Virus record (IMG/VR): IMGVR_UViG_3300047160_006395
Location: 1-64,000 of that record
Origin: a virus
Direction: 5' to 3' (one strand)
DNA: 64,000 bases
Positions 1,562 to 63,310 of the stretch are shown one piece after another. The notes below the pieces were generated by a model that saw nothing but the letters and a program-made list of their open reading frames with translations, did not search any database and was not told the DNA's origin. Numbering within the stretch: the first letter of the stretch is position 1; each line of letters begins with the position of its first letter. Both the position numbers and the translations under genes were made by a program.

Positions 1562-2797
1562 TTACGCGGCTACCTTCAGCTTGGGCTCTTCTTTTTTGTC
1601 GGTGAAGAAGAGGCCGTTCGCCGCGCAGTAAACCGAAAGTCCGAGGAACGGAACCCAGGGAGCAGTGATGCTCAACAGGGTTGTCCCTGCGACCTTGTAG
1701 AACACGGCTGCGCTACCAGCGAAGGTAACGATCAGACTCAACGCCGTGTTCTCGTGGACCTGGCGCTTGGTCCACTTGGCCAGATTGCAGACGCCGTCTT
1801 TGGCTCCGATCGCGATCTCCTTGATCTTGCTGCCGGCACCCTTGGTGCTTTCGCAGAGCCAGTTCCAGGTGCCTTTGACGGCCTTGCCGAGCCAGCTCCA
1901 GCCACCGCTGACGGTTTCGCAGAGCCAGTTCCAGCCGCCCTTGGTGGTTTTGCACAACCAGGCCCAGTCCTGCTTGACGCTCAGCTTGAACGCTTCCCAG
2001 TTGTACTGGACGGTTTCGCAGAACCAGCCCCAGATTCCCTTGGTGGTACGGCCGCCCCAGCCCCACACATCCTTGACGGTCTGCTTGGTGAAGCTCCCGC
2101 CTGTCTTGAACGTCTCGCCGACCCAGCTGAAGAAGTCGGAGAAGAGATTCTGAAACCCCTTCCAGAAACCCACGGTCTTGGGATCGGAGGCGGGCTCGAT
2201 GGTCGTATCGGCAGCCGGATCGGTAGCCGCGTTGGCAGCCGGATCGGTAGCCGAAGTTGCAGTCGAATCAGCTTTGGCCTGGCTCGAGCCCTGCATGTTA
2301 TCGGCCGCGAGCTTCTCCATGCGGGACATGAACTGGCCGAAACCTTCGGCGACCTTGTGCATTTCCTCGTGCGACTGCGCCGCGAGCTTCTCAGCAGCTG
2401 CCAAGCGATCGTCAATGCGCTTCTCGCTAGCCAGTGAGCGCTCGTGCATGCGCTGCTCGCTCTCTACCGAGCGATCGAACAGGCGTTTCTCGAGATCCGC
2501 GACAGCCTGGGCGGAATCGTAAGCGGGCTTGGTAACCGCAGACGAACCGCGGTCGGGCAAGCTCTTCGACAGGCGCTCAACTTCATCGCCCTGCGCTTGC
2601 AACCGGTCGGCGTCATCCGTGGCGGCGATCAGATCCTGAGCAGCTGCCCGCAAGCCCGACTGGATCTCCGTAGCGGCAGCGGCAGCCGTGTCCTGACTCA
2701 TGCGGCCAGCCTTGATAGGCACGGTCGAACTGTCCTTGACGGGGAAACCGGGGCGAGGACTCGAACGGTGAACAGACTTTTCTTGCTTGGTACTCAT
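1562..2797 (-). CDS. Coiled-coil protein with 11-residue Trp repeats and C-terminal TM hairpin
   Basis: 411 aa ORF, GAAAGG RBS; repeats LCKTTKGGWNW/LCETVSGGWSW/LGKAVKGTWNW; two hydrophobic C-terminal segments. Confidence 0.8.
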   Translation of the reverse strand: MSTKQEKSVHRSSPRPGFPVKDSSTVPIKAGRMSQDTAAAAATEIQSGLRAAAQDLIAATDDADRLQAQGDEVERLSKSLPDRGSSAVTKPAYDSAQAVADLEKRLFDRSVESEQRMHERSLASEKRIDDRLAAAEKLAAQSHEEMHKVAEGFGQFMSRMEKLAADNMQGSSQAKADSTATSATDPAANAATDPAADTTIEPASDPKTVGFWKGFQNLFSDFFSWVGETFKTGGSFTKQTVKDVWGWGGRTTKGIWGWFCETVQYNWEAFKLSVKQDWAWLCKTTKGGWNWLCETVSGGWSWLGKAVKGTWNWLCESTKGAGSKIKEIAIGAKDGVCNLAKWTKRQVHENTALSLIVTFAGSAAVFYKVAGTTLLSITAPWVPFLGLSVYCAANGLFFTDKKEEPKLKVAA

Positions 2798-2799
2798 CG

Positions 2800-3105
2800 G
2801 AGTAAACCTTTCAGGTAAAGAAACTCGAACATTGATCAGGGTTTTTTGGTCAGGGTTTTCCTGGGCACGGGGCCGTACCTACGTCAGACTCCTCCACTCA
2901 CCCTGACCACAATCCGTTTGAAGAAGTGGGGAGGAATCGGTACGACCCCCGTGTAAGGGGGTTGTACGTTGGTTGTGACAAAGACGCGGACCGCCCGATC
3001 GCGATCACTCATTGAAAGGACGATCAAGAGGAGTGAATTCGGACGGCCCGCGTATGCGGTCTAGATCGGGTTATTCGGGTGGGCAATACCATGGACGTCG
3101 CCCAC
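2800..3105 (-). ncRNA. Candidate structured 5' leader or ncRNA (~300 nt)
   Basis: 15-bp stem 2984-2998/3039-3053 whose two non-WC pairs are G-U only on the minus strand, plus further hairpins; lies directly downstream of the motif at 3111-3137. Confidence 0.45.
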
Positions 3106-3110
3106 TGATG

Positions 3111-3137
3111 TATGACGAGATTATGCCCGATCTTTAG
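3111..3137 (-). promoter_or_regulatory. Bipartite promoter motif CTAAAG-N15-GTCATA
   Basis: One of five copies with conserved spacing at the 5' end of accessory units. Confidence 0.7.
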
Positions 3138-3231
3138 CGCCTGGGAAGGCACCAGAAATGAGGATAGCCCGGTCCAGGGGCGATTCCTGGGCCGGGCTGA
3201 CGTAAAGGAGCTGATATGCCCGGGAAACCCT

Positions 3232-3942
3232 TTACGTCGTGCGTCGACGTGCCCGGCGCCGGCTGAAGACAGCCGCGAGGCACAGAATACCAACGCCCGT
3301 CAACGCCATCGAAGACGGTTCAGGCACTGCTGCCTGTGAGTAACTTCCATTCCCTGTCAGGGTAGCGCCAGGGGTGCTGAAGAAATTCGCCCATGTCACT
3401 GGCCCGGTGAGCCCGGTACCCGACGTGCTGGTGAGTGTGATGTTATTCTCACCACCCTTCATGAAATTGATAAAGTCGAAGTTCGGGTTGCTGTTTTCCA
3501 GCAGGCTCGTTATGGCCCCGGACATATTGAAGTAGCTCGGCAGCAGCAGTGGCGCGATGCCAGTCTGCATGTTGAAAGCCAATTCGGCCTGCATCCCGGG
3601 CGTCCCCCCGATCGTCTGATCGTAGGTGGAGGGACTCAGAGCGAGACTGTAAATTCCCGGCGACGCCGTCGGCGTCACGAACATCGTAACGGGCCCAAGC
3701 ACCTCGGTGGTCTCGGGTGGAACGAATAGCCCGTTTACGCTGTTCATCTGGCTCGACACGTTGGGAATGTCGAACTTGACGGTAGCGACACCGAAGCCGT
3801 TCACGCCCTCGTTCGTGACGTGAAACTCCCCGATGTTTCCGGAATCGGTCATCACGACCGTTCCGGCATAGGCTGCCTTCGTACTCGCGATACACGCGAT
3901 CGCGAGAAGCAGGGCAGCGCAGAAGCAAGTTCTCCGTTTCAT
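3232..3942 (-). CDS. PEP-CTERM sorting-domain surface protein
   Basis: N-terminal signal peptide (MKRRTCFCAALLLAIACIASTKAAYAG); C-terminal VPEPSS + TM helix + RRRARRR; GGAG RBS before ATG 3942. Confidence 0.9.
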   Translation of the reverse strand: MKRRTCFCAALLLAIACIASTKAAYAGTVVMTDSGNIGEFHVTNEGVNGFGVATVKFDIPNVSSQMNSVNGLFVPPETTEVLGPVTMFVTPTASPGIYSLALSPSTYDQTIGGTPGMQAELAFNMQTGIAPLLLPSYFNMSGAITSLLENSNPNFDFINFMKGGENNITLTSTSGTGLTGPVTWANFFSTPGATLTGNGSYSQAAVPEPSSMALTGVGILCLAAVFSRRRARRRTT

Positions 3943-4066
3943 CGGATACTCCATACTAAGGTTCTACGATCCTCGACCAGGCCCGGACTTTGGGCCTCAC
4001 TGTTCGGCTTTCGTACTCTAACGTACTGGGCCGCAGAGCCGCCACATGTAAGTGGCTCCAATAGTG

Positions 4067-4094
4067 TATGACAGGTATACAGGCGTTACTTTAG
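4067..4094 (-). promoter_or_regulatory. Bipartite promoter motif CTAAAG-N16-GTCATA
   Basis: Immediately after the stop of 4098..4415 and upstream of the PEP-CTERM gene. Confidence 0.7.
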
Positions 4095-4097
4095 CTA

Positions 4098-4415
4098 TCA
4101 GAAGGTCCGGTCGATGATCCGGTTGGCACCGTTGACGTGCACGACGCGGATCTGTTTGCAGTTCAGAAGCTGCTTGAGCCGGATCTTGTCCTGGGGCTGC
4201 ATCGTCGCCAGGGTATTCTTGAACTGCCGGTATTCGGCCAGTGTCGCCCGTTGCTTCTGCCGGCAGCGACCGCAACCCGGCCTGACCACCTTGGGCTTGA
4301 TCAATGCAGCTAGGTGGGGAAACGCCTGGCGGAATGGCGCGTTGACCACCAGCGAATCGATCGTGCTGTTCTCGATCACGATCACGTTGCGCTGGGGAAT
4401 GCCTGTAGCTATCAT
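4098..4415 (-). CDS. Small basic CxxC protein (105 aa)
   Basis: PGCGRC motif; starts 1 nt after the upstream stop. Confidence 0.7.
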   Translation of the reverse strand: MIATGIPQRNVIVIENSTIDSLVVNAPFRQAFPHLAALIKPKVVRPGCGRCRQKQRATLAEYRQFKNTLATMQPQDKIRLKQLLNCKQIRVVHVNGANRIIDRTF

Positions 4416-4416
4416 G

Positions 4417-6870
4417 TCACGGCTCCGGGCTGATAATAACGATCTCCGTCGCGTCCTGCTGCTCCATTATATTGAGAGTCTCGACCAGATGCTCAATGTC
4501 ATCCAGGATCGCCCGGTACGTATCTTCAACAAGCATCCGACTACGCATGACAATGTCAATAGTGTTGAGCCGAAACCACGGTGGTCTCGCATTCGGGCCC
4601 GGCCAGCCCACAGGAAAGTCTTCGAGGTCAGCCGGGCTGCATACCCCGTTGAAGCTACTCGTCAGCGCAACGCTTGTTGGCGGCTGGTCGATGCTGGTCC
4701 GCGTCATGGTCGGCACTACCCGGTAGCGGAAGATATCGGTCGGCATGTTGGTCGTGCTGATGGCGATCATGGTAAACCGGAAGCCATTAACACTCTGCGC
4801 TGACGAGACTGTCTTGTTGGCCTTATTAGCCATGAACCACGGCCGGAACAGGGGTATCAGTGCGACCGCGCGTTGGTCCTTCGCGATCAAGATGGCAGTG
4901 AGTGAGTCGGTGGTATGGGTCAGCGTCGGGGTCGTGAATATCGACACGTAGCTATCGGCCGAATGCATCACGACAAAGGTCACCGCCAAGGTACTGTCGG
5001 TGCCATGGACCAGGTGCTGCCCCGTTTGCAACAAGGCATCGGTGTCGTGAGTCTTGGTTACTGTCGTCCGCAGCCAGCTATCAACGCGGTGCGTTACCGT
5101 CCTGGTCTGCAATAGCAAGCTATCAGCACCGTGGATCTTGATCTGCGTCGCTTGCAGCGAAGTATCGGTGCTGTACGCTACTGCCTGAGTCTTCAACAAC
5201 CAGCTATCAGTGTCGTGGGTTCGCCGCAGCGTCGCGAGCAAGCTGGCATCAGTACCATGGGCCTCGATCTGCGTCGTGCGCAGGCTGGCGTCGGTGCCGT
5301 GGGCCTTGACCTGCGCCGCACGCAGACTGGTACTGGTGTTGTGGGTCCTGGTCTGCGTCGCGCGCAGGTTGATATCGGTGCTGTGGGTCCTGTTCTGCGT
5401 CGCGCGCAAACTGGCATCGGTGCCGTGGGCCTTGATCCACGTCGCGCGCAGGCTGGCATCGGTGCCGTGGGCCTTGATCTCCGTCGCGCGCAGACTGGTA
5501 CTGGTGTTGTGGGTCCTGGTCTGCGTTATGAGCAGCCTGGTATCAGTGCTGTGAGTCCTGGTCTGCGTTGCACGTAAGCTGGCATCGGTACCATGAGTCT
5601 TGGTAACCGTTAGCGTCTTTACTGTCAGGGTATCGGTGCTGTGAGTCCGGGTGCCGATCGATAGCAGCGGATCTATAAACCAGCACGAGAACACACAGTT
5701 CGGTGCTTTCGTATTGACGATCTGAAACTGAACACGGCTAATTACGTTGTAGACCATGTAGACGCCGGTCGTGGCGAAGTCGCCTAAGTTCCGAGCCGGG
5801 TCGAGCGGTAGGCCGGTAACACCATCTACAACAGCGATGGTCTGGTTACGGCCTTGTCTGTCATAGTCGACCGAATAGATCGCTATCGAGTGGGGAAGAC
5901 TATCATCGAGATTGAATGTGATGGTCTCGGTACCGTTGACGTAGTACCCCAGGGCCGCGGTTATGCCCGGCTGCCCGGGGACTTGAACGTACCGTGGATC
6001 GGAATAAGAGCCAGCGGCAAACCAGGTCCATATCTGTCCGCCGGCGAGAGTCACCGTGCACTTGGGTGGCAGAACATTACCTACACCACCTGCGTTCAAG
6101 ATGCCGTAACCCTGACTGCCGTATGCTCCGATCCAGGAGCCATTTCGCCAGGTATTCATCTGCATAAAGGTCGCAGATGACGGCTTAGCTAGAAAAGCAT
6201 CAGTAGTATGCGACTTGGTCCAACTACCGAACAGGACAGAGTCAGTCGCATGCGTTTTGGAGACGATCGTCGTCGCCGGATCAATGAACCAGGCCGAGAA
6301 CGAAGTGTTGGGACCAGCAGTCAAGGTAATAGTGAACTGAACCGAGCCGGATACGTTGTAGACCATGTAAACGCCAGGTAAGCCCGCGCTCGTAGGACCC
6401 GTGCTTCGGGCCGGGTCGATCAGGACAGGCGCACCGCTGACGTCATAAGCCGCAATGGTCTGGTTGCGACCCCTGCTATCAGGATCGACAAAGTAAACCG
6501 CTACCGCGTGGGTGAGACCATCAGTGAAATTAAACGTGATGGTCTCGGTAGATACGGAGTAGTAACCAATAGCTCCAGTCTTGGTGGGCTGGCCAATAAC
6601 CTGGACGTACCGCGGGTCAGTATAAGTCGTAGATGCAGGGAAAAATGTGTAGTAACTACCGCCGGCAAGCGTCACCGTACAGCCCGATGGGACGACATCG
6701 GCTGCGCTGCCCAAGCCAAGCACCGAGACGCCCTTAGTCCCGCGAGTACCGATCCAGGTACCATTCCGCCAGGTATCTGCTTGTAAGAACGTCGCAGTTG
6801 ACGCGGTCAAGCCTGGTGAAGGCGCGACCAGTTGCGAGTCAGTAGTATGCGTCCTGATCTGCGTCACCAT
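4417..6870 (-). CDS. Modular fibre-like protein: two GxWxGxYG beta domains, ~21 HxTD repeats, C-terminal CSPADLEDFP module
   Basis: 817 aa ORF; 14-aa (42-bp) repeats; C-terminus paralogous to 6901..9204. Confidence 0.8.
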   Translation of the reverse strand: MVTQIRTHTTDSQLVAPSPGLTASTATFLQADTWRNGTWIGTRGTKGVSVLGLGSAADVVPSGCTVTLAGGSYYTFFPASTTYTDPRYVQVIGQPTKTGAIGYYSVSTETITFNFTDGLTHAVAVYFVDPDSRGRNQTIAAYDVSGAPVLIDPARSTGPTSAGLPGVYMVYNVSGSVQFTITLTAGPNTSFSAWFIDPATTIVSKTHATDSVLFGSWTKSHTTDAFLAKPSSATFMQMNTWRNGSWIGAYGSQGYGILNAGGVGNVLPPKCTVTLAGGQIWTWFAAGSYSDPRYVQVPGQPGITAALGYYVNGTETITFNLDDSLPHSIAIYSVDYDRQGRNQTIAVVDGVTGLPLDPARNLGDFATTGVYMVYNVISRVQFQIVNTKAPNCVFSCWFIDPLLSIGTRTHSTDTLTVKTLTVTKTHGTDASLRATQTRTHSTDTRLLITQTRTHNTSTSLRATEIKAHGTDASLRATWIKAHGTDASLRATQNRTHSTDINLRATQTRTHNTSTSLRAAQVKAHGTDASLRTTQIEAHGTDASLLATLRRTHDTDSWLLKTQAVAYSTDTSLQATQIKIHGADSLLLQTRTVTHRVDSWLRTTVTKTHDTDALLQTGQHLVHGTDSTLAVTFVVMHSADSYVSIFTTPTLTHTTDSLTAILIAKDQRAVALIPLFRPWFMANKANKTVSSAQSVNGFRFTMIAISTTNMPTDIFRYRVVPTMTRTSIDQPPTSVALTSSFNGVCSPADLEDFPVGWPGPNARPPWFRLNTIDIVMRSRMLVEDTYRAILDDIEHLVETLNIMEQQDATEIVIISPEP

Positions 6871-6900
6871 GATTCCATCGCCGGTTGAACAGCGGACGCG

Positions 6901-9204
6901 TCAAAGCTCTGGGCCGATGATAATTATTCCTGCCGCATCCTGTTGATCCATCAGGTTAAGGGTCTTAACCAGATTCGTTATCTCGACCAGGATTGCCTTG
7001 TAGGTCATGTCAGCGATGGTCCGGCTGCGAACGATCAGGTCGACGTGGTCAAGGCGGTACCACGGCGGCCGGGCGTTCGGGAGTGGCCAGTCTTCGGGGA
7101 AGTCCTCGAGATCGGCCGGGCTACAGACACCATCGAAAACACCGGCGAGTTCGACGGCTGTTGGCGGCTGGTCAACACTGGTCTGCATCTTGGTGGGCAC
7201 CACCCGGTAGCGGAAGATCTTCGACGGCATCATGTTCGCTTCGACAACCTGGAGAGTGAACCGGAAGCCGTCGATCACATTAGGTATGAAGTGCCGCTGG
7301 AACGTGGGTAGCAGCATGATCGTCCGGACATTGGGTATGGGCGCCGGGACCATGAACGAGTCAGTGCCGTGCGATACTGCCGTGGTAAGGACTGCAAAAC
7401 AATCGGTGGTGTGCGTCAGGCCGACGATGAATAGCTGTGCATCGATGAACCAGGCTGCTATGGATGCGGAATCAACGTCAGTCGCTGGCGCAATGGCAAA
7501 CTGGACCGTGCCTTTCGCATTCCAGGTCAAGTACACGCCGTGAGTTGCGGTTACGATGACAGATCGTGGACCATCGAGCAGGATGGGATTACCAGGATCA
7601 GTGACATCGTAGACCGACGTATTCTGTGAAGCCCAGCTATCGGCATAATAGATCGACAGAGCGTGCGTAAGTCCATCATCGAGTTGGACCGTGAGTGTCA
7701 TGGTGCCGTAAGTACGATAAAGATAGGCACCTATGTATCCGGGCATGCTCGGGATCTGAAGATACCAGGCATCGGACCCCCAACCGACCGCAGCAATATA
7801 GTCGATACCAAGCCACCCATTGGCAAAACTGACTGAGCACCCTGCCGGGATAACATCTGGTTCTCCGCCCAGCCCCAAAAGCGAATAACCCTGGCTCCCA
7901 TACTTCCCTACCCAGGTACCTCTCGTTGAATCGTCCTGCTGCACGAATACCGCGGTTGCCGCCTTGGAATCAGCAGCCGTAACATCCGCCGACTGCGGTG
8001 CATCGACGAACCAAGCCGACATTGCGCCCCAACTACCCGTCGTAGTGATAGAAAACTGGACCTGGCCACTCACGTTCCAGATCATGTAAACACCAGCTCC
8101 CCAACCCCAGGTACCGGTTGGAAGCCGAGGACCATCAAGCACGACAGGATTGGCAGGGTCAGTAACGTCGGAGACAGTAAAACTTGGGATGTAACTATTA
8201 CCGATGTAGAGTGCGACAGCGTGGGTAAGACCATCGGTAAAGTCGAATGTGATCGTTATTGGGGGACTGGGATCACCCCAACTGGGATCACCCCAATAAT
8301 ACATGGCTCCGGTAGCGCCAGGCATGCTAGGAACCTGAAGCAGATACGAGGCATCCCACGAATAGTCGGTCTTGGGCCCGAACCAGTTCGCATAACTACC
8401 GCCAGCCAAACTCACCGAGCACTTCGGTGGTAGAACGTCCGGCGCATTGCCCAGATTATTGATCGAGTAACCTTGTGCTCCGTAGGCGCCGATCCAGGTA
8501 CCCTGCGTTGAATCATCTTGCCGCGTGAACACTGCGCCTGCCTGTACGGCCAGGTGGCTGTCAGTACTATGCTTCAGAGTACCGATCGTCAGATGCGGAC
8601 CGATGAACCAGGCCATGAGCACAGCGTTCAGGTTCGTCATGTCAGCATCGACAATGCTGAACTGAACATGGCCCGTCACGTTATAGATCATGAAGACGCC
8701 GGACGCGGCGCAATCACTTACGTTCAGGCTGCTCATGTAGATGGGATTGGCAGGATCAGTGACATCATAAGCCGTTACGCTGAGGTTCCGGCCTTGCTGA
8801 CTGGGATCCACAAAATAGAGCGCAACGGAATGCGAAATGCCATCATCAAGCAAGAACGTGGCGGTTACAGGTAAGTCGCCAAAAGCAGAATTGAGCCCAC
8901 TCTGACCAGGCATACCGGGAATTGCGAGAAGACGCGGGTCAGCGTAGGTCCCAATAGGATACCAATCGTAGATCCCTTGCACCGCATCGACGCTCACTGA
9001 ACACAATGGCGGAATGACATCCGGTACCAAGTCCATGAGCGAATAGCCATGATCACCGTACTTACCGATCCAGTTGATGCCGTTCGTCCAGCTATTACGC
9101 TCCAGGAACACCGCGGTCGACGGCGCCAAGACACTATCAGTCCTGTGCGTCACAGTGCCGACGATCATCGGCAGATCTGTGCGGGCCTTTTTCTTCCTAG
9201 CCAT
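6901..9204 (-). CDS. Modular fibre-like protein: three GxWxGxYG beta domains, few HxTD repeats, C-terminal CSPADLEDFP module
   Basis: GGAGG RBS before ATG 9204; three internally repeated ~170-aa domains. Confidence 0.8.
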   Translation of the reverse strand: MARKKKARTDLPMIVGTVTHRTDSVLAPSTAVFLERNSWTNGINWIGKYGDHGYSLMDLVPDVIPPLCSVSVDAVQGIYDWYPIGTYADPRLLAIPGMPGQSGLNSAFGDLPVTATFLLDDGISHSVALYFVDPSQQGRNLSVTAYDVTDPANPIYMSSLNVSDCAASGVFMIYNVTGHVQFSIVDADMTNLNAVLMAWFIGPHLTIGTLKHSTDSHLAVQAGAVFTRQDDSTQGTWIGAYGAQGYSINNLGNAPDVLPPKCSVSLAGGSYANWFGPKTDYSWDASYLLQVPSMPGATGAMYYWGDPSWGDPSPPITITFDFTDGLTHAVALYIGNSYIPSFTVSDVTDPANPVVLDGPRLPTGTWGWGAGVYMIWNVSGQVQFSITTTGSWGAMSAWFVDAPQSADVTAADSKAATAVFVQQDDSTRGTWVGKYGSQGYSLLGLGGEPDVIPAGCSVSFANGWLGIDYIAAVGWGSDAWYLQIPSMPGYIGAYLYRTYGTMTLTVQLDDGLTHALSIYYADSWASQNTSVYDVTDPGNPILLDGPRSVIVTATHGVYLTWNAKGTVQFAIAPATDVDSASIAAWFIDAQLFIVGLTHTTDCFAVLTTAVSHGTDSFMVPAPIPNVRTIMLLPTFQRHFIPNVIDGFRFTLQVVEANMMPSKIFRYRVVPTKMQTSVDQPPTAVELAGVFDGVCSPADLEDFPEDWPLPNARPPWYRLDHVDLIVRSRTIADMTYKAILVEITNLVKTLNLMDQQDAAGIIIIGPEL

Positions 9205-9295
9205 TTCGGCGTCCTCCATGACCGTTTCATCAGCCTGCCAGCATACCGCACGGCGATGGTAGTCAGAAGCCCGGCCCGCACCAAGCCTGGCTGAG

Positions 9296-9344
9296 AGCTA
9301 AAGAAAAGGGAGATGGCCGCCCCTCGTGGGGCGACCCCAATCCC
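9296..9344 (-). terminator. Intrinsic terminator ending TTTTCTTTAGCT
   Basis: Stem GGTCGCCCC-ACGA-GGGGCGGCC directly after the stop at 9345, followed by a U-rich tail. Confidence 0.8.
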
Positions 9345-9545
9345 TCAGTGACGATGGCAGGTCTTCTGCTCTCGTTGAGGCGAGAAGAACTTCTTGCCGC
9401 ACTCAATGCACTCGCGCGGGGAATCCTTCCAGGTGCTGGGACATCCCTGTTCGTGGCAGATCACCCGGTTGATGCATAGCACGTTGCAATCATTGCAACC
9501 GCAGCTCAACTGGATCGGGTCCCCGTTCAAGTAGCGGGTCCTCAT
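9345..9545 (-). CDS. Small Cys/His-rich zinc-binding protein (66 aa)
   Basis: CGCNDC, CHEQGC, CIEC, CHRH; ATGA overlap with the upstream gene. Confidence 0.75.
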   Translation of the reverse strand: MRTRYLNGDPIQLSCGCNDCNVLCINRVICHEQGCPSTWKDSPRECIECGKKFFSPQREQKTCHRH

Positions 9546-9805
9546 GACTCAACCGGCGTTGCTAGCCGGTATTTGCCGCCCTCGAAGATGATCTTGCGTT
9601 CCATGACCAGTTTATCTAGCGCGGCCATGGTGTAGTCACGCACATCATCGGCGTGAAATTTTTTCTTGTACTTCGGATGCTCGATCATCCTGAGACTGGC
9701 ATCCGGAGCAGTCATCCCATCACCCCCGGCCTGGACGAACATTTCCAGCACGTCGACCGGAAATATTTTCAGATTGACCAGCGGGCCTTCTTCGTTCTTT
9801 GCCAC
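9542..9805 (-). CDS. Hypothetical protein (87 aa), possibly winged-helix-like
   Basis: AAGGAGAAGGAA RBS before GTG 9805; helix then LVMERKIIFEGGKYRL hairpin at the C-terminus. Confidence 0.65.
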   Translation of the reverse strand: MAKNEEGPLVNLKIFPVDVLEMFVQAGGDGMTAPDASLRMIEHPKYKKKFHADDVRDYTMAALDKLVMERKIIFEGGKYRLATPVES

Positions 9806-9827
9806 GTTCCTTCTCCTTGTTGAAGAA

Positions 9828-9998
9828 CTAAACAGGGTCACGCTTCTGCCGCCGCTTCTCGATCACTTCCGTGATCTCACGCTCGTACGTCAGCACGTGC
9901 GCCAACGCCTGGGTGAGAACGCCGAGCCGGTATCTGCCAACAGGGCAGATCTCCAACTCGGTGCGGCGGGTCCCAATCAGATCGACATTGAGGATCAC
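9828..9998 (-). CDS. Hypothetical 56-aa protein, not in ORF track (MILNVDLIGTRR...KRDPV)
   Basis: Read manually; GTG start overlaps the upstream TGA (GTGA); fills the gap between genes. Confidence 0.5.
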   Translation of the reverse strand: MILNVDLIGTRRTELEICPVGRYRLGVLTQALAHVLTYEREITEVIEKRRQKRDPV

Positions 9999-10096
9999 AG
10001 TATGCTGCGATCCATGGATACCTCGGCTTGCCAGTCCGCTTCCTTGTTCTGCTGCGTGAACCGCAGCTTCATGAATTGCGAGATCTGTTCAGCCAT
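9995..10096 (-). CDS. Hypothetical 33-aa peptide (MAEQISQF...RSIL)
   Basis: First ATG downstream of the motif at 10134-10161; coupled to the next ORF. Confidence 0.35.
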   Translation of the reverse strand: MAEQISQFMKLRFTQQNKEADWQAEVSMDRSIL

Positions 10097-10133
10097 GAGA
10101 CACCAAGAGGTAAATGAACGGCCTCTACCGTTA

Positions 10134-10161
10134 TATGACGCGGTTTCCCTGTTTCCTTTAG
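10134..10161 (-). promoter_or_regulatory. Bipartite promoter motif CTAAAG-N16-GTCATA
   Basis: The TAA in CTAAAG is the stop of 10158..10493; overlaps an inverted repeat CCTGTTTCCTTT/AAAGGAAACAGG. Confidence 0.7.
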
Positions 10162-10493
10162 CTGCCGAATCGCAGGAAAGGAAACAGGAATAACTGCACT
10201 TCACGCGTCGGCCGTGAGCGCACCACGGCTGTGTCCATCTTGTCAGGCGGCAGCGCAGCGACTAGCGCCTGCACACGGTGGTTACCATCTTCACGCTCTG
10301 CCGCACCGGGCCAGCCGTCGACGACGTCATGACCATCATCGACGACAATCTTGGTGTTTAACAGGTTAGCCCGGAACAACAGATCAACAATGTGATCCTG
10401 GACGTCGAGCTGTTTCGTCTCGATGCCCACAAGCAGTGCCATAAAAGTGTCGTACTCCTTCTTCCGTCTGGCAACACGGGTCTGTCTGGACAA
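10158..10493 (-). CDS. Hypothetical protein (~111 aa)
   Basis: AAAGGAG RBS before TTG 10493, downstream of the motif at 10554. Confidence 0.55.
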   Translation of the reverse strand: MSRQTRVARRKKEYDTFMALLVGIETKQLDVQDHIVDLLFRANLLNTKIVVDDGHDVVDGWPGAAEREDGNHRVQALVAALPPDKMDTAVVRSRPTREVQLFLFPFLRFGS

Positions 10494-10553
10494 TTGTCGG
10501 GACTCCTTTCGTTGGATGATCAAAGCGCAGCCCTACTGGGCGGCATCATGGTA

Positions 10554-10580
10554 TATGACGCTCTCCAACGCAACCTTTAG
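10554..10580 (-). promoter_or_regulatory. Bipartite promoter motif CTAAAG-N15-GTCATA
   Basis: About 10 nt downstream of the terminator at 10590-10640. Confidence 0.7.
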
Positions 10581-10589
10581 GTTTCGTAA

Positions 10590-10640
10590 TAGCTAAGAAA
10601 AAAGGGTGGGGGTTCCCCTTACGGGGCCCTTTTTTCTTAG
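10590..10640. terminator. Bidirectional-type terminator, minus-strand tail TTTTTTCTTAGCTA
   Basis: Perfect 14-bp inverted repeat CTAAGAAAAAAGGG (10593-10606) / CCCTTTTTTCTTAG (10627-10640). Confidence 0.8.
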
Positions 10641-10811
10641 TCGGGGTTCATCCCTTCGGGGGGTTATTGTTGTCGGGGGCTAGGACGTGTTTTGGTCTCA
10701 CACCCAGTCCCAGGATGTGAGAGTGATATCCCCCCAGTTATCCGCAGGTGTCGGTGGGGTGATACGCGGAAACAACGGGTTGTCAACCTTGCGGCGACCG
10801 GGCACAAGACG
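10641..10811 (-). ncRNA. Candidate structured RNA or 3' UTR
   Basis: Several hairpins (10696-10705/10713-10722 with G-U on the minus strand; a GCAA-capped stem); no credible ORF. Confidence 0.35.
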
Positions 10812-10898
10812 TCAGAAAGGTGAACCGTACAATCGAGAGGCAATATACACAATCGTAACCACCACTCGAATCACGGACAGGCAAAGTCTGACAGTCAT
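10812..10898 (-). CDS. 28-aa hydrophobic peptide MTVRLCLSVIRVVVTIVYIASRLYGSPF
   Basis: Read manually; AGGAGG RBS. Confidence 0.6.
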   Translation of the reverse strand: MTVRLCLSVIRVVVTIVYIASRLYGSPF

Positions 10899-10967
10899 CG
10901 AAACAAACCTCCTAAAAAGTTAATGCCCACCATGGGGCATACCGCAAAGAAACGAAACGGACCCTGC

Positions 10968-11057
10968 TCAACCAATGATCGCGGCAATCGCCTGAGCAAT
11001 GGCCAGTGCCAGTGCACTGGTAAACTTGAGCAGAGCAACCACGGTTGCGACGGTCAT
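10968..11057 (-). CDS. 29-aa hydrophobic peptide MTVATVVALLKFTSALALAIAQAIAAIIG
   Basis: Read manually; AGAAAGG RBS; first ORF after the motif at 11118. Confidence 0.6.
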   Translation of the reverse strand: MTVATVVALLKFTSALALAIAQAIAAIIG

Positions 11058-11117
11058 GACATAACCTTTCTTTGGTTAGAGAAGCGCGCAGTCCAACAGC
11101 AGGACGCGCCACTTATA

Positions 11118-11145
11118 AGTGACACGTTTTCCCTACAATCTTTAG
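11118..11145 (-). promoter_or_regulatory. Bipartite promoter motif variant CTAAAG-N16-GTCACT(TATAA)
   Basis: The TAA in CTAAAG is the stop of the collagen gene. Confidence 0.6.
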
Positions 11146-12038
11146 CTCCCGGGCTTGACCGCCTGATCCCAGAACGCCTGGTTCTGCTCGGCTGCTTCAG
11201 GCGTGAAGGTCGGGAACCGCTTATCCTGCCGGCCGCGGCGAACGCCCGAGATGGTCACGATAACTCGAGTCGGTACGCCAAACTTGCAGTCATCGAGATC
11301 GAGCCGGATACGCCCGTTGTCGACCATGACGCCGACGTTGCAGGACTTGTTGGGCGCCACGGCGATCGGTACGAGCGAGCCCGGCACACAGACATCAGTG
11401 AAGATCGGGTCGATCGGACACAGGATGTGGGTATCACCGTGGTTGTTGACGATATCGTAGACATCGAAGAATCGGGCTTCAGGCATCTCGGCACAGAACA
11501 GACCAACGTGCATTTGCCTCGTATCGTTGTGAACCGAGACGATGGCATACTTGTCGCCACCGTCACCGGCCGGACCCTTATCTCCCTGCGGTCCTTTGTT
11601 GCCGGTTGCGCCCTGCTTTCCATCAGCTCCTTGCGATCCGGTCTGACCTTGTGATCCGGGCAAACCTCCGGGACCCCCTGGACCCATGGGACCCGCAGGA
11701 CCCATGGGACCTATGGGGCCATGGGGACCTATAGGACCTATAGGACCGTGGGGTCCTTCAGGACCTATAGGACCCTGGGGGCCTTGGGGACCCTGGGGGC
11801 CTTGGGGACCCTGTAACCCATAAGGCCCCTGAATTCCGGCCGGGCCAGGAATGGGGATGTCGATGATCTCAGGGCACGAAAAGATCTGCTCGGGTAGGGC
11901 GGGCACCTGACAGCTACCGATGATCGGCGCGCTGCTAACTGGGGGAAGAGGGGGAACCCCCGGGCACTTCTCCGGATCGAAGATGGGATCCGGCAGCCCT
12001 TGGGCACCCTGCAACCCTTCCGGGCTTGGGTCACTCAT
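11142..12038 (-). CDS. Collagen-like fibre protein with globular C-terminal domain
   Basis: 33 uninterrupted Gly-X-Y triplets; ATG 12038 overlaps the end of the upstream gene. Confidence 0.9.
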
Positions 12039-13488
12039 CCCCCAACTCATCACCCAACTCCTCGACAACGGTCTGGACAGGCCCGCAGACGGTCATGTTA
12101 CTGCGATCGAAGTTGATGGTCAGCGCGCTGTTGTCAGTCGTCGGCGAGATCGTAACGCCTAGACCGCCGACGAACTGCATAATGCTAGCCGTTATGCCGT
12201 TGATGCTGCTGATGAGTTCGTCGCAAGTCGGACCACCGGTAAGCAGGATACTGCCGTCTGGTGGCTTCTCGTCGGGATAGATCGGCACCTCCTCACAAGG
12301 GACACCGGCGCCAGCAGCCTGGATAGACGAGAAGGTCAGCGAATTAGTCCTGTTGTCCTGCCGGATCGAGACGTTGTATCCCTCCTCGAATCGGATATCT
12401 CCCGTTATGTATTTGGCAGCAACAACATACGGCGGGTTCGTATCGCCACCGCTATCTGGGCAGCCAACTGGTGGTGTTGCATGGGTGCGATCTTGGTTGG
12501 CCAGGCTTATTGACCGAAGATAGCTCCGCCCTAAATTCTGAACCAACGCCGGCTCGATCTGAGGGCCCGTCGTGGCCGTCAGAACGCCGTCTGCGGGCAG
12601 CAGGGCGGCGAGGCTGGCCATCGGGCCGGTAACCAGGAAACCCTCCCAGAGCGGCTCCAGGGACCCCAAATAGCTATCCGCCGCCGAGCCGTAGCCAGCC
12701 AATGGCGTAGCCTCGGCGTAGTCGGTTGCGTACTCGAGTTCGTTTAGATCACGGCTGAACAGTAACGCATGCTCTACCAAACCCGGAGCATCCGAGCGGA
12801 AGTCGAACGTGAAGGTATCACCAGCACGCATGACCTCATGCAGGTATACGACGTGGTAACTGCTGTCGAATTCGGCGTCGAGGCCGACTATGCAGCCGAA
12901 GTCGATCAGGGTATCCAGGGGGATGACGAGCGGGGTCGGTAGTGTGGGCGGGGTTGTCGTGACATCCTCGACCCAGATCGCGTCGGCCAGCGTCAACGCG
13001 AGGGGACTGGTGATGGAGATGAGCAGCGTGCTGCGGGTTGGCGTAACGGTTCCTACATCCATCCAACTAACACCATCTGCATCCGTCCGTGCGCTCGGAG
13101 GAATCGTCTGGTTGACCCACGACTCCAGCAACGGATAGTAACCCTGGCCTTGTCCTTCGACTTCGGTGACCTGGAAGGGAACATTGGTTGCCAGCGCCGG
13201 AGAGGCCGGCCATGTTGCCGAGATCCGGTAGGTCCGGCCCGGCACTATGGTGAAGGTCCAGGTAACACTCCCTTCCCCCCACGGTATGCTCTGCCAGTAG
13301 CCACCGCCGCGGCCACCGGACCCAACGATCGAGATCCACACTCCCGGGGTGATGACCACGTTGGAGCCATTCCAGTTACTGGTCTGGCTGGATAGCGGCA
13401 AAGACGGCGCAGCCACGCTTGCTTCGGACCACGGTATGAGCGGGTAAGCCCGTGCTGCGTTGTCGTTATAGAATCCAGGAAGAGGCAT
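12031..13488 (-). CDS. NxxRxYP-family virion protein with inserted CBM/golvesin-like beta-sandwich
   Basis: [12 protein letters not shown] start; [21 protein letters not shown] insert; ISSINGI and Cys-containing tail. Confidence 0.65.
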
Positions 13489-13490
13489 AT

Positions 13491-14060
13491 CTACATCTCA
13501 CTGATGAATTTGTCAGCCTTGGCGCCGTTACATGGGCCACAAGTAATGCGGCAATTAGCGTATGAATGTGCGCCGCCACGACTCAGCGGAACCTCATGAT
13601 CGAGATGCATTTTGCTGTAGGCAACTGGCTTACCGCAGAGATAACACCTACCCTTGTCCCGCGCATAAACAACCTGACGTGATACGAATTCGACTGTCGC
13701 TCGTTTCTTCAGTGCTTTACGGATCCTAGCCCTATCTTTGAATGGTTCGGGGTTCTTCTTATAAACGCCTCGAACGCATCCTGTGTTACATGACTTACAG
13801 TAGGCAAATAGTCCATCCTTAGTCGTGCCGGGCGAAGCAGGGCTGAACTGTCGCCTACCACGAACTCGTCCACATTTAATGCATCGCTTTTTCGTGACGC
13901 TGATCGTTACATCAACCTGCTTACAAGCAGCTCGTCGCCTTCTGTGAAATTCGCGAGCGCACAACTTGCAGTAGGGATACCGACCATCACTCCGCGTCCG
14001 GTCTTTCCCAAACGCACTGATACGTTTGGTCCGATCACATCGTAAACAATGTTTGTCCAT
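13491..14060 (-). CDS. HNH endonuclease with N-terminal zinc ribbons
   Basis: CYLC...HLDHEVPLSRGGAHSYANCRITCGPCN; repeated CxxC; AT-richer than flanks. Confidence 0.92.
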   Translation of the reverse strand: MDKHCLRCDRTKRISAFGKDRTRSDGRYPYCKLCAREFHRRRRAACKQVDVTISVTKKRCIKCGRVRGRRQFSPASPGTTKDGLFAYCKSCNTGCVRGVYKKNPEPFKDRARIRKALKKRATVEFVSRQVVYARDKGRCYLCGKPVAYSKMHLDHEVPLSRGGAHSYANCRITCGPCNGAKADKFISEM

Positions 14061-14864: not shown

Positions 14865-17242
14865 GGTGTGACCTCCAGCTCAAACCAGCTGAAGCGGGTA
14901 TGCGCGTTATTCGATCCGAGACCAACCTTGGTACCAGCTTCGGTAAACGAATACTTGAAGTCGACCACCATCGTCTTGAAGGTCGTATCCGTGACCCCAC
15001 TGAGGGTCGTCTCGATGATGTAGTTGTGAAAGGACGGAGCGAATGCAGGGTCAGGATAGATCTTGCATTCCAGGTGGTACCACTGCTCGGCCTTGGGTGA
15101 ATTGCCCAGGATGAATGGTACCCCGTCTACTCTCGTGATGGTGTAGCCGTTGTACCAGCTCATCTCCAGATAACCGGAGACCAGATTGGGCCCTATGATC
15201 AGGTAAGTCGTGAGCAGCGTGACGGGATCTTGCAGCTCGAAGTAAATGACGATGCCGCCATTCATCTGGGCCCCGGTCAGCATCTTGAGGCTGGTCTTGA
15301 CGGTCAGGTTCTGCGTCGTGATGTCGTAATTATGGCAATCCCAGAACGCCACGTTGCGATGGGCCGTATCCGCGGCGGTAAAGCTCCTGTTGATCAGGAC
15401 GACACCGGTAGGAGGTTCAGTTCGAGTGGCCCGACCAAATGGCGGTGTCCCGCCAAGACCGACCTGTTCACCCGGCGGCACGCCAGAGCCTGGCGCCTCC
15501 AAGCTGAATGGCTCATCAGGAGAATCATCTTCCTCGATGGCAAAAATGCCGGACGGAGTAGCCCACACCGCCGGGACGTAGCTGTCGAAGTTCTCGTAAT
15601 AGGGCAGCGGGGAGCAATCCAGCATGGCCTCTTCTATCTGGAAGAAGCTGAACAGGCTGTGAGCATTCAACGCCCCGAGACCAACCTTGCCGCCGGGATA
15701 GAGAAACTGGCATTTCCAGTCAGCCGTGACTGGCTGGAAGTCCGGGTCCGTGATCCCGCTAACGGTCGTTGCCAGCTGGAACTCGGTCAAGTTGTACGGA
15801 GGAGCGAAGCCACCAAAAGCGGGATCGTGGCTGATCACACAAGTCAACTGATACCACTCGCCGATCTTGGGATAATTGCCCGTCTGGAATCCGTAATAAG
15901 CAGTCAACTTGACGTTGGTACCGTCGTAGGTATAGAGCATGTGCCCGTTGAGATAAGTTTCCTCCGGGTTGTTAGGCGCCAGCTGCACCGCCACCAGTAA
16001 GCAGGTATTCTTCTGCGCGACAGGATCGTACACGTAATTGACGATGAAGCCGGCGTTGAGCTGATCGCCGGCCACCAGCTTGAAGTGCGTGGTCAAGACC
16101 AGGTTCTGTCCTGAGACATCATAGTTGCAATTCCAGAGCACCATGTTGAAGCTGTTCTGATCGACCGCAGCGTAGCTCTTATCGATCGCAGTGTTATTGC
16201 TCGTCGCCAGGCCGCACGGCTCCTTCGGTGAGTCACCATCCTCGACGGCAAAGGTGCCTGACTTCAGCTGCCACGGCGAGGGAATTGCGCCATCAAAACT
16301 CTCGCAGTAAGGCAACACAACACATCCCGACGGCAGCCCTAGTATCCCTGTCGGAGCGCACCCGCCTTCGTACTCGTTAGGCAGCTTACCGTTGTTGTCA
16401 GGCAGATAGTCCTGGCCCGTGCAGGTCTCGGCCATACCCAGCGCAAGATCCAGGGCAATGCCGCCGCCATCCTCGAAGTCAATCGTGTTTATGCCGGTGA
16501 AGTCGATGGTCAGATTGCCGTTGCAGTCAGGCAAAACGCCGTTGATCGTTTCGATCACCGGTTTGTTGCAAGTGCCACTCTCGGGACGGCCCGCGCATGG
16601 CCCCGAGTAGAACTGGTAGACATTGCGGTTCAAATTGTCGATCAAGCGGATGATGATGGCGTCGACGATACCGCCTTCGATCTCGCGCGTATCCTGGATC
16701 ACTTCCAGATCGGTAGCTCCCAGAAGCAGAACCACGCCAGTCAAGGGTGGGTTTGTGTTGAGCTTGGCCAGGGTAGGAATCGGCAGCGGATAATAGGCCG
16801 AAGCCACCCGCGGCAACAGGATCGACTGAGATGGCTTGCTGAAGCGGCCCGAGTAGGGCTCATCGACGCCTTGCCCGAAGACCACCCAGCCGCCGACACC
16901 AGTGGCCATTGGCTGAATCGGATAATGTCGGTAAGGCTGAACCGGCATCGGCACTGAAACAGCGCCCAGAGGCTGGTCGATTATGCCGTTAGAAGGCACG
17001 CCGCCGGCCGGGCGGATCGTATCAGCGGTCGCCATGAGAATGACCGTGACGATGTTCGGGCTGACGGTCACGGCACTGATATAGGCGAACCGGCCCATGG
17101 CCAGAGGGAACTTGACCCGGCAATCAACCAGGATCTGTGGCGGTAGCTCCTGTCCAGCGTCATCGCGCGCCGTCGCCACATCATCGAGCGGATAGGCTCG
17201 AGTCGCGTTGCTTGCATACCAGCCGAGGTTAATTGTGGCCAA
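14861..17242 (-). CDS. NxxRxYP-family virion protein with two C-terminal ConA-like beta domains
   Basis: WYASNATRAYPL; IETINGVLPDCNGN; duplicated LPYxExFD...WYxL...GKVGLG..NAH..FSxF domain. Confidence 0.7.
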   Translation of the reverse strand: MATINLGWYASNATRAYPLDDVATARDDAGQELPPQILVDCRVKFPLAMGRFAYISAVTVSPNIVTVILMATADTIRPAGGVPSNGIIDQPLGAVSVPMPVQPYRHYPIQPMATGVGGWVVFGQGVDEPYSGRFSKPSQSILLPRVASAYYPLPIPTLAKLNTNPPLTGVVLLLGATDLEVIQDTREIEGGIVDAIIIRLIDNLNRNVYQFYSGPCAGRPESGTCNKPVIETINGVLPDCNGNLTIDFTGINTIDFEDGGGIALDLALGMAETCTGQDYLPDNNGKLPNEYEGGCAPTGILGLPSGCVVLPYCESFDGAIPSPWQLKSGTFAVEDGDSPKEPCGLATSNNTAIDKSYAAVDQNSFNMVLWNCNYDVSGQNLVLTTHFKLVAGDQLNAGFIVNYVYDPVAQKNTCLLVAVQLAPNNPEETYLNGHMLYTYDGTNVKLTAYYGFQTGNYPKIGEWYQLTCVISHDPAFGGFAPPYNLTEFQLATTVSGITDPDFQPVTADWKCQFLYPGGKVGLGALNAHSLFSFFQIEEAMLDCSPLPYYENFDSYVPAVWATPSGIFAIEEDDSPDEPFSLEAPGSGVPPGEQVGLGGTPPFGRATRTEPPTGVVLINRSFTAADTAHRNVAFWDCHNYDITTQNLTVKTSLKMLTGAQMNGGIVIYFELQDPVTLLTTYLIIGPNLVSGYLEMSWYNGYTITRVDGVPFILGNSPKAEQWYHLECKIYPDPAFAPSFHNYIIETTLSGVTDTTFKTMVVDFKYSFTEAGTKVGLGSNNAHTRFSWFELEVTP

Positions 17243-27380: not shown

Positions 27381-28175
27381 TCACAGTAACGCGGAATCCT
27401 CAAACTCATCGAGCATCTGCTGGATCCTCGCCGCCCGTTGGCTGACAGCCCCTGGCGAGAGTTTCAGTCGGCGGGCGATCTGCGAAGCTGGCAGCTTGGT
27501 CGCCCCGTTCAGGCCCATGCCGTACTCTAAGATCACCTGGTCGTGTGGGTCCAGGTCATGGTACAGAAATTCAGCTCTGAGTTTCGTCCGATCCGGTCCT
27601 TCGACGGCCGGCTCGAACCCGCCGCCCGCACCACCTTCCTCGTCCTCATCGGCAAGCAAAGCCAACCGACCTTCGGACACCGGTGACCGGTACCCGCGGA
27701 TGTGAGCAATACGCCGCCGTGATAGCCCGGTATGGTCAGCCAGCTCCAGATCTGAAGGATCACGACCGAGGCGGTCACTCAGTTCTGCCTCAGCTTCATT
27801 CAGATGATGCTGATCGAGGGCCACAGCTTCGGGAACATGGATCACCTGGTTCTGCTGGGCGCCGTAGCGTCGCAGACCCTGAAGATGAGCCATCAGATGG
27901 GTCTTGAGGCTGGCCTTGGATGGGTCGTACCTGCCGGCGGCTTGCAATGCAATCCGGCGGGCACGGCTCCGCATCATTGGATTGGCGCTCCGACCGCCAT
28001 AGACATTCAATCCTTCCTGGATCACCGGATCGACAGCCTTGAGGAACGCATCGGAGCTGGTCGGGTTAGGATTGGCTGACCAGGCGTGAAAGGCGGGAGC
28101 GAACTTGGGTTCAAGCCGGTTGGTTGGCGCAGAAAAGCTGTCATCGAGCTTGGCCGGCGTGAAAGTGCTGGGCAT
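27381..28175 (-). CDS. Phage RNA polymerase sigma factor, group 3 (FliA/WhiG/SigF-like)
   Basis: Region 2 YDPSKASLKTH, region 3 LSDRLGRDPSDLELADHTGLS, region 4 HTH SQIARRLKLSPGAVSQR; GGAGG RBS. Confidence 0.85.
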   Translation of the reverse strand: MPSTFTPAKLDDSFSAPTNRLEPKFAPAFHAWSANPNPTSSDAFLKAVDPVIQEGLNVYGGRSANPMMRSRARRIALQAAGRYDPSKASLKTHLMAHLQGLRRYGAQQNQVIHVPEAVALDQHHLNEAEAELSDRLGRDPSDLELADHTGLSRRRIAHIRGYRSPVSEGRLALLADEDEEGGAGGGFEPAVEGPDRTKLRAEFLYHDLDPHDQVILEYGMGLNGATKLPASQIARRLKLSPGAVSQRAARIQQMLDEFEDSALL

Positions 28176-28184
28176 GGTTCCTCC

Positions 28185-28200
28185 GATACGCTGCGTAACG
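28185..28200. promoter_or_regulatory. Palindromic operator-like site GATACGCTGCGTAACG
   Basis: Abuts the sigma RBS; recurs at 45578 and 63292. Confidence 0.55.
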
Positions 28201-63250: not shown

Positions 63251-63285
63251 TAGCTAAAAGAAAGAGCCGGATGTAGGCAGCTCTT
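63251..63285 (-). terminator. Intrinsic terminator ending TCTTTTAGCTA
   Basis: Stem AAGAGCTG/CGGCTCTT then a U-rich tail, after the HNH gene. Confidence 0.7.
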
Positions 63286-63291
63286 CATGCT

Positions 63292-63310
63292 GATACGCAG
63301 CGTAACGGGG
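63292..63310. repeat. Palindrome copy GATACGCAGCGTAACGGGG
   Basis: Immediately after the HNH stop codon; only the central base differs from the other copies. Confidence 0.6.

Follow-up and report, generated by a model that had tools for sequence, protein, structure and literature searches.

The subject of this report is a two-box sequence motif, CTAAAG-N15/16-GTCAYW, that recurs in a stretch of DNA from a large uncultured phage, namely positions 1–64,000 of the IMG/VR record IMGVR_UViG_3300047160_006395 (this whole stretch is called the window in what follows; the full record, labelled G000, is 103,397 bp long with an estimated completeness of about 50%, the parent phage being roughly 225 kb in size). 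The sites that carry this motif, referred to here as class I sites, constitute an oriented, intergenic, promoter-like signal made up of two boxes, the sequences giving good support to a sigma-70-family geometry, and on the whole we lean towards reading them as phage-specific promoters that open exchangeable transcription units, with a sigma factor and an RNA polymerase encoded by the phage itself as the most likely reader. That the sites act as promoters, where transcription from them starts, what reads them and that expression is early are what we infer from the observations set out below. Related records, 42 of which were surveyed for the motif, are designated G001, G002, G003, G004, G005, G006, G010, G035 and so on; they span 150–235 kb in size and 40–65% in guanine plus cytosine (GC) content.

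The motif and its architecture

Five exact matches to the motif occur in the window, all on the minus strand (Table 1) and exactly where an earlier, sequence-only reading of this DNA had put them. That they are real is clear from the controls: across 100 dinucleotide-preserving shuffles of the window the mean number of matches was 0.01 and none of the 100 reached five, while CTAAAG itself is scarce in the window (6 occurrences against 11.7 expected), five of the six belonging to the motif. The sequence-only reading had called for a search of the whole record and its relatives, and this enlarged the set: the rest of the record holds three further exact copies, with CTAAAG boxes beginning at 79634(-), 80959(-) and 82687(+), and a near copy with one mismatch per box at 81590(-), so that the total is nine sites and not the five first recognised. 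The reversed pattern, used as a control over the whole record, gave no matches. Seven of the ten GTCATAYA octamers in the record have the upstream box at the correct spacing, and a blind two-box motif search of intergenic DNA ranked the class I motif top both in the record and in the distant relative G035.

When the sites are aligned the conserved string is (AG)CTAAAG, 15/16 nt, (Y)GTCATAYA, 4 nt, TGR. The two boxes of the sequence-only reading thus stand, with the second of them read in a register two bases downstream of GTCAYW; the most natural interpretation of the alignment is a -35 element CTAAAG, a 17/18-bp spacer, a conserved GT at -14/-13 and a -10 hexamer CATAYA. In this register A-11 is invariant and TGR lies 5–7 nt past the hexamer, and it is likely that what follows is a 6-nt discriminator ending in TG and then a purine start, the R of TGR being the predicted start position. 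The -10 variants seen in relatives (CATAAT, CATTAT and CAAAAT) agree with the same register. As regards the properties to be looked for in a sigma-70-family promoter, the boxes are coupled, being paired at about 17 bp, the sites have both A-11 and a purine at the start (as predicted), and all nine sites of the record are intergenic and co-oriented with genes.

Just downstream, stems of at least 5 bp beginning 4–15 nt past the hexamer are present at 18 of 21 sites, as compared with 37% of random windows (p = 5e-6). Outside the core boxes the promoter modules show only a slight excess of similarity to one another (0.60, against 0.54 when shuffled), and because this barely exceeds the shuffled value no claim of whole-module duplication is made.

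Genomic setting of the sites

Nearly all genes of the record are on the minus strand, and the nine sites all fall outside real open reading frames (ORFs) and point the same way as the genes. (The simple ORF caller used produced shadow ORFs in GC-rich DNA, for example over the second sigma gene described below, and site positions were therefore checked by eye.) The sole plus-strand site, at 82687, is followed by a plus-strand ORF and then a plus-strand terminator. The fit to neighbouring features is close: at sites 4094 and 81590 the box begins 1–3 nt past a TGA stop codon, and at sites 10580 and 79634 it begins 8–12 nt past a terminator.

Each unit is short, comprising promoter, leader hairpin, one to three orphan ORFs or ORF-free RNA, and then a terminator, in which a hairpin is followed by a T-run and a TAGCTAT tail. 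The cargo consists of orphan ORFs except for two tiny hydrophobic peptides, a PEP-CTERM protein and about 430 ORF-poor nucleotides after site 81590. These are non-structural accessory units, as the sequence-only reading had described them; one correction to that reading is that a class I site lies upstream of the gene for the C-terminal part of the polymerase beta' subunit, with one small ORF and a terminator in between.

The units are held in two hypervariable islands, one after the tail-fibre genes and the other between the two RNA polymerase genes, where the record has three extra units relative to G002. The record and G002 are collinear across the structural genes, and the genes behind class I sites are without homologues in G002. 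At promoter 5 nucleotide similarity to relatives ends at 11161 (G001), 11169 (G002) and 11149 (G003), at promoter 2 it ends at 4100 (G002) and 4097 (G003), and it ends again at 81549–81592, all of these break points being within tens of nucleotides of sites. At the same junctions the relatives have a class I site of their own, followed by unrelated cargo.

Table 1. Features of the window connected with class I sites, with the candidate reader; promoters, starts and stem-loops are predictions.
Feature	Position	Strand	Remarks
Class I promoter 1	3102..3137	-	Exact motif 3111-3137; predicted start ~3102; heads a leader of ~300 nt and ORF 1562-2797
Class I promoter 2	4058..4094	-	Exact motif 4067-4094; predicted start ~4058; three nt past the TGA stop of ORF 4098-4415; heads the PEP-CTERM protein gene
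Class I promoter 3	10125..10161	-	Exact motif 10134-10161; CTAAAG 10156-10161, GTCATA 10134-10139; predicted start ~10125; TAA within CTAAAG is the stop codon of ORF 10158-10523
Class I promoter 4	10546..10580	-	Exact motif 10554-10580; CTAAAG 10575-10580, GTCATA 10554-10559; predicted start ~10546; starts 12 nt past a terminator
Class I promoter 5	11109..11145	-	Exact motif 11118-11145; CTAAAG 11140-11145, GTCACT 11118-11123; predicted start ~11109; TAA within CTAAAG is the stop codon of the collagen-like fibre gene 11142-12068
Leader stem-loop, promoter 1	3079..3105	-	8-bp stem
Leader stem-loop, promoter 2	4034..4060	-	7-bp stem
Leader stem-loop, promoter 3	10106..10126	-	5-bp stem
Leader stem-loop, promoter 4	10526..10545	-	Bulged
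Leader stem-loop, promoter 5	11082..11114	-	Bulged
Terminator-like hairpin	9296..9325	-	T-run and TTTAGCT tail; closes the units begun at 10580 and 10161
Terminator-like hairpin	10590..10620	-	T-run and TAGCTAT tail; closes the unit begun at 11145
Orphan ORF, downstream of promoter 1	1562..2797	-	411 aa
PEP-CTERM protein gene, promoter 2 unit	3232..3954	-	PF07589, 25.2 bits against a cut-off of 20.7
Orphan ORFs, promoter 3 unit	9345..9841	-	99 aa; 66 aa, Cys-rich
Orphan ORF, promoter 4 unit	10158..10523	-	121 aa; no homologue in G002
Two tiny hydrophobic ORFs, promoter 5 unit	10812..11057	-	10968-11057 (29 aa); 10812-10898 (28 aa)
Candidate reader	27381..28175	-	Divergent three-domain sigma-70-family protein; within the baseplate gene block
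Near-palindromic motif	28185..28199	-	GTTACGCAGCGTATC; directly before the ribosome-binding site of the sigma gene

Some features of the cargo and the terminators may be recorded here. The phage-borne PEP-CTERM protein has a signal peptide and a VPEP-TM-Arg tail, and a homologue in G001 stands behind a matching promoter. The 430 or so nucleotides after site 81590 (record 81100-81553, minus strand), which have no convincing ORF and end in a strong terminator, are a candidate non-coding RNA; Rfam scans of both islands, this candidate included, gave nothing above the gathering thresholds. The tail-fibre genes have one for an HNH endonuclease in their midst (window 13491-14060). Terminator tails consisting of a T-run and (T)AGCTAT are found at 9296-9306 and 10590-10600 in the window and at 63256, 79179, 79647 and 83096(+) in the record; this tail is the reverse complement of the promoters' TAGCTAAA and is the top intergenic word in G035, and it may be that tails of the AGCTAT type are a termination signal specific to the phage polymerase. 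At three places in G035 (14899-14950, 25847-25895 and 49015-49070) a class I leader hairpin is followed directly by a T-run, in the manner of an attenuator or of a very short RNA.

Conservation among relatives

The motif family is present in about 20 of the 42 related phages. Matches to the slightly relaxed pattern CTRAA-N16/17-GTCATMHA number 7 in the record itself, 8 in G001, 5 in G002, 3 in G003, 9 in G035 and 2 in G010, as against 0–1 per record for the controls, and in the gene-called genomes they sit on the strand that carries the majority of genes (8 of 8 in G001 and 9 of 9 in G035). Allowing variant -10 boxes (GTCATTAT, GTCATAAT and GTCAAAAT) adds 26 matches in 16 of the 42 records, the control giving none; the form in G005, for instance, is CTAAAT-N15-GTCATTAT.

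In the close relatives G001, G002 and G003, the sigma factors of which (see below) are 77–85% identical to that of the record, the motif is likewise on the gene strand. Much further away, G035 (47% GC, sigma 41% identical) has nine crisp copies of AGCTAAAT-N13-GCGTCATATA, and these supply both the top intergenic 8–9-mers and the top two-box motif of that genome. In G004, the sigma of which is also 41% identical, the blind search gave no clear two-box motif. The -35 CTAAA is retained in phages ranging from 40 to 65% GC.

The phage polymerase and its candidate sigma factors

The record has genes for a multisubunit RNA polymerase in two chains, one comprising beta and the front of beta' (83102-88621) and the other the back of beta' (77175-79169). 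It also encodes the protein at 27381-28175 that the sequence-only reading had singled out as a sigma factor, an assignment that has held up well. Pfam regions 3 and 4 match it weakly, below their cut-offs, and in the G010 homologue region 2 matches at E = 0.004. An AlphaFold model of the protein (predicted local distance difference test score, pLDDT, of 81) finds full-length sigma factors as all of its top 50 matches in the PDB, with 221–274 columns aligned and E down to 1.5e-7, so that regions 2, 3 and 4 are found in order, as in the sigma-70 family. Scores against SigB/F/G and FliA/WhiG models are weak and far below the family cut-offs. Metagenomes contain more than 200 homologues, the longest contigs being of 190–385 kb, and the region-4 recognition helix G-A-V-S-Q-R is nearly invariant among them, while a search of genomes of 185,579 bacterial and archaeal species yielded just two small contigs of metagenome-assembled genomes, one of them labelled Aquaspirillum. 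Judged from its sequence and its model, then, the protein is a genuine three-domain sigma factor that is restricted to phage-like contigs.

Among cultured phages a homologue is detectable in Salmonella phage Arash (OQ632216) alone, the gp10 of which is 24% identical by tblastn and is found by phmmer at E = 8e-13 (in a search of the proteins of few genomes). Arash gp10 has been detected in purified virions along with both polymerase chains (PMC10585845). Binding of the core polymerase and initiation by the 27381-28175 protein are predictions, to which this co-occurrence in Arash virions lends indirect support by analogy.

The supposition that there is one dedicated phage sigma needs qualifying. 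The 27381-28175 protein is a true sigma and yet not the sole phage candidate, because G002, a complete relative with a 130-bp terminal repeat, carries a second one (289 aa, 20153-21019, minus strand) in which regions 2 and 4 exceed the Pfam cut-offs. This second sigma is the more canonical of the two; its gene is beside a ribonucleotide-reductase-like gene, and the protein is weakly similar to Arash gp196.

No class I promoter lies ahead of the sigma gene at 27381-28175, nor ahead of its counterparts in G001–G003. What does precede it is a near-palindrome, GTTACGCNGCGTAWY, other copies of which are at 45578-45592, 61158-61172 and 63292-63306 in the window and at 72798-72812 and 91091-91105 in the record. 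Often the motif stands 3–15 nt ahead of a ribosome-binding site, as it does at the sigma gene of G000, G001, G002 and G003; some copies are within ORFs. G001–G003 have many copies, and G004, G035 and Arash have none. As to its role, an operator, a late promoter and a small RNA hairpin are all possible.

Comparison with known systems

Phage-specific promoter classes and regulatory cassettes of the kind discussed below are known already, and the present system is a variation on these. As the sequence-only reading had maintained, the motif corresponds to no standard consensus. Promoters for sigma28 (FliA/SigD) have the form TAAAG(TTT)-N11-GCCGATAA; the class I sites share the -35 TAAAG, several of them reading TAAAGTTC, and the distance to the second box is the same, whereas their -10, (Y)GTCATAYA, is not GCCGATAA and has only ATA in common with it. 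The sporulation promoters of Bacillus SigE and SigK have -10 elements CATACA-T and CATA---TA, which resemble the CATACA or CATATA hexamers seen here, but their -35 is ATA or AC as against CTAAAG. The hosts, to judge from the PEP-CTERM cargo and a GC content of 58–65%, are probably Gram-negative. Extracytoplasmic function (ECF) sigmas, with a -35 of AAC and a -10 of CGTC, fit no better: CGTC is present at 5 of the 9 sites of the record and TGTC at the other 4, AAC occurs only in CTAAAC variants, and ECF sigmas have two domains as against three in the candidate.

The closest parallel is with the promoter-early stem-loop (PeSL) cassettes of T4-type phages (Arbiol et al. 2010, PMC2839356; Comeau et al. 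2014, PMC4122927). In both cases small composites of a promoter and a stem-loop or terminator lie to either side of orphan ORFs, in hypervariable stretches that separate conserved core genes; the break points between close relatives fall at the elements, and from one phage subgroup to the next the consensus drifts. The differences are that PeSL promoters are near-perfect host sigma70 promoters (TTGACA-N17-TATAAT or close variants) where those described here have CTAAAG and CATAYA, that the phages here are unrelated to T4 and have their own polymerase and sigma, and that there is an extra stem-loop downstream of the promoter, in the leader, besides the upstream terminator.

Jumbo phages of the phiKZ/AR9 type package multisubunit polymerases in the virion and have early promoters that are short, AT-rich single boxes, with no canonical sigma (PMC7598289; PMC5312081). 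Common ground with these lies in a phage-encoded virion multisubunit polymerase proposed to read phage-specific early promoters, a virion location being suggested here only by the Arash homologue; the difference lies in the recognisable three-domain sigma and the two-box promoter.

In Arash itself the gp10 gene likewise has neighbours annotated as structural, the polymerase is divided into two chains in the same way, and terminators have a T-run followed by AGC (tails like ‘ttttagc’). On the other hand its sigma is only 24% identical, there is no CTAAAG motif, and the intergenic repeat that it does have, tGGTATAAG-N5-TGTAA, is accompanied by only a weak upstream box. There are about 30 copies of this repeat, nearly every one of them on the minus strand; they stand ahead of leftward non-structural genes and tRNAs, with a weak TTCCA box 18 nt upstream, and form a candidate promoter class for the cultured relative; promoters go unmentioned in the Arash paper (PMC10585845). 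A literature search gave no description of the class I motif, nor of any promoter for an Arash-type polymerase.

Which polymerase reads the sites?

The scheme that we favour would run as follows. Each class I site would open a small, self-contained transcription unit, the RNA of which would begin with a stem-loop and end in a hairpin terminator. Such units would come, go and give way to others, the break points falling at promoter or terminator, as for PeSLs. The most likely reader would be the sigma at 27381-28175 acting with the phage polymerase, and since Arash virions contain the homologue along with the polymerase, the units would probably be expressed right after infection. We put the chances that this sigma, probably with the phage polymerase and probably early, is the actual reader at about even. 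The link between sigma and promoter is plausible and circumstantial, being drawn from their co-occurrence in the clade, from the near-invariant region-4 helix alongside the invariant CTAAA, from the restriction of the protein to phage-like contigs and from the packaging of its homologue in Arash virions. Retention of CTAAA across 40–65% GC, taken with the near-invariant helix, fits a phage-encoded reader, and falls short of proof because the genomes were picked for having the sigma.

A serious rival, although one that we rate as unlikely, is that host RNA polymerase recognises the sites, whether through an alternative sigma of the host or through use of the -10 by sigma70 together with a phage activator that binds CTAAAG and replaces -35 recognition (compare MotA/AsiA at T4 middle promoters). 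The -35 is, after all, equal to the TAAAG of sigma28, many sites have T-G at -15/-14 in the manner of an extended -10, and the relatives' variants CATAAT and CATTAT are one base from TATAAT; it may be added that PeSL and moron cassettes of other phages employ host polymerase (PMC2839356). Yet CTAAAG agrees with TTGACA at only two of its six positions, the -10 is not that of sigma28, this peculiar -35 persists in phages with GC contents of 40%, 47% and 58–65% and presumably different hosts, and the phages carry a polymerase and sigma of their own. Nor are sigma70-type sites enriched: the sequence-only reading had assigned such promoters to structural genes, a claim that is not borne out, as scans for the consensus gave 3 matches against 5.9 expected and 1 against 1.9. 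(At record 64090-64125, minus strand, there is an orphan GTCATATA that has a sigma70-like -35, TTGACT, in place of CTAAAG, the 15-nt distance being unchanged; it stands before gene 63311-64099, and a hairpin comes after it.) No MotA-like factor turned up, though none was sought. Expression of the units as morons from a prophage is unlikely, because no tyrosine integrase was found in the five genomes searched and G002 has a terminal repeat.

The other phage-encoded possibility, that the reader is a second sigma of the 289-aa G002 type, distantly like Arash gp196 and perhaps located in the missing half of the record, draws on the good Pfam matches of the G002 protein and on the record being only about 50% complete. 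It is nonetheless rejected as very improbable, because this sigma is undetectable in G035, a genome that is 93% complete and has nine sites but no region-2 match; apart from G002, tblastn turned up just a weak match in Arash, and it was not detected in G001, G003, G010 or G035, all of which have class I sites. The lack of enrichment of sigma70 sites, a -10 that is not that of sigma28 and the failure to detect the second sigma in G035 and the other motif-bearing genomes besides G002 are together why the sigma at 27381-28175 is favoured. We likewise give little credence to the idea that, instead of being promoters, the elements are chiefly repeats for recombination or at the boundaries of mobile cassettes, with short inverted ends made up by the AGCTAAAG box and the CTTTAGCT tail of the terminators. 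The tail TTTAGCTA is indeed the reverse complement of TAGCTAAA, and similarity to relatives does break at the elements, but the second box is equally conserved, with a fixed 15/16-nt spacing and a fixed orientation relative to genes; T-run plus AGCT tails are found at cassette-free terminators too (63256 and 79179), and neither a transposase nor target duplications were seen. A recombination role and promoter function can, moreover, coexist, by analogy with what has been proposed for PeSLs.

Several considerations weigh against reading the sites as promoters served by the phage sigma. Promoter function and start site are deductions throughout. The leader hairpins fold with a free energy no more favourable than random windows do, and it is only in the position-specific test for stems that they stand out significantly. 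The surveyed genomes were all picked for possessing the sigma, so that co-occurrence comes without a negative control, and even so about half of these sigma-bearing relatives match neither the CTRAA pattern nor the variant -10 patterns. The sigmas of G005 and G006 are closer to that of the record than is that of G035, yet these two phages have only a variant motif or none. The -10 boxes of many relatives, as just noted, are near to that of host sigma70. Finally, with only about 5–10 sites per genome, mostly before orphan genes, there are few for a complete early programme.

Significance

For a large and almost unstudied clade of big phages having their own polymerase and sigma, of which one relative has been cultured, the motif provides a concrete and testable promoter consensus. 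If the phage sigma does read the sites, the arrangement would be unlike that of the virion polymerases of phiKZ/AR9 type, with their lack of a canonical sigma, and sigma and promoter would form an orthogonal pair. A bolder proposal, and a tentative one that we regard as possible without expecting it to hold, is that this clade of phages of about 200–230 kb injects a holoenzyme, consisting of the two-chain polymerase and a sigma-70-family sigma, for which CTAAAG-N17/18-CATAYA would be the early-promoter code. Were that true, a virion polymerase that depends on a sigma and has a defined promoter would be on record for the first time in a phage, and the same elements would double as joints for the exchange of accessory genes. 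Whatever the reader, the elements mark the points at which accessory genes are plugged in and swapped, which extends the PeSL principle beyond the T4-type phages, and they help to locate cargo genes, such as that for the PEP-CTERM protein, in metagenomic phage genomes.

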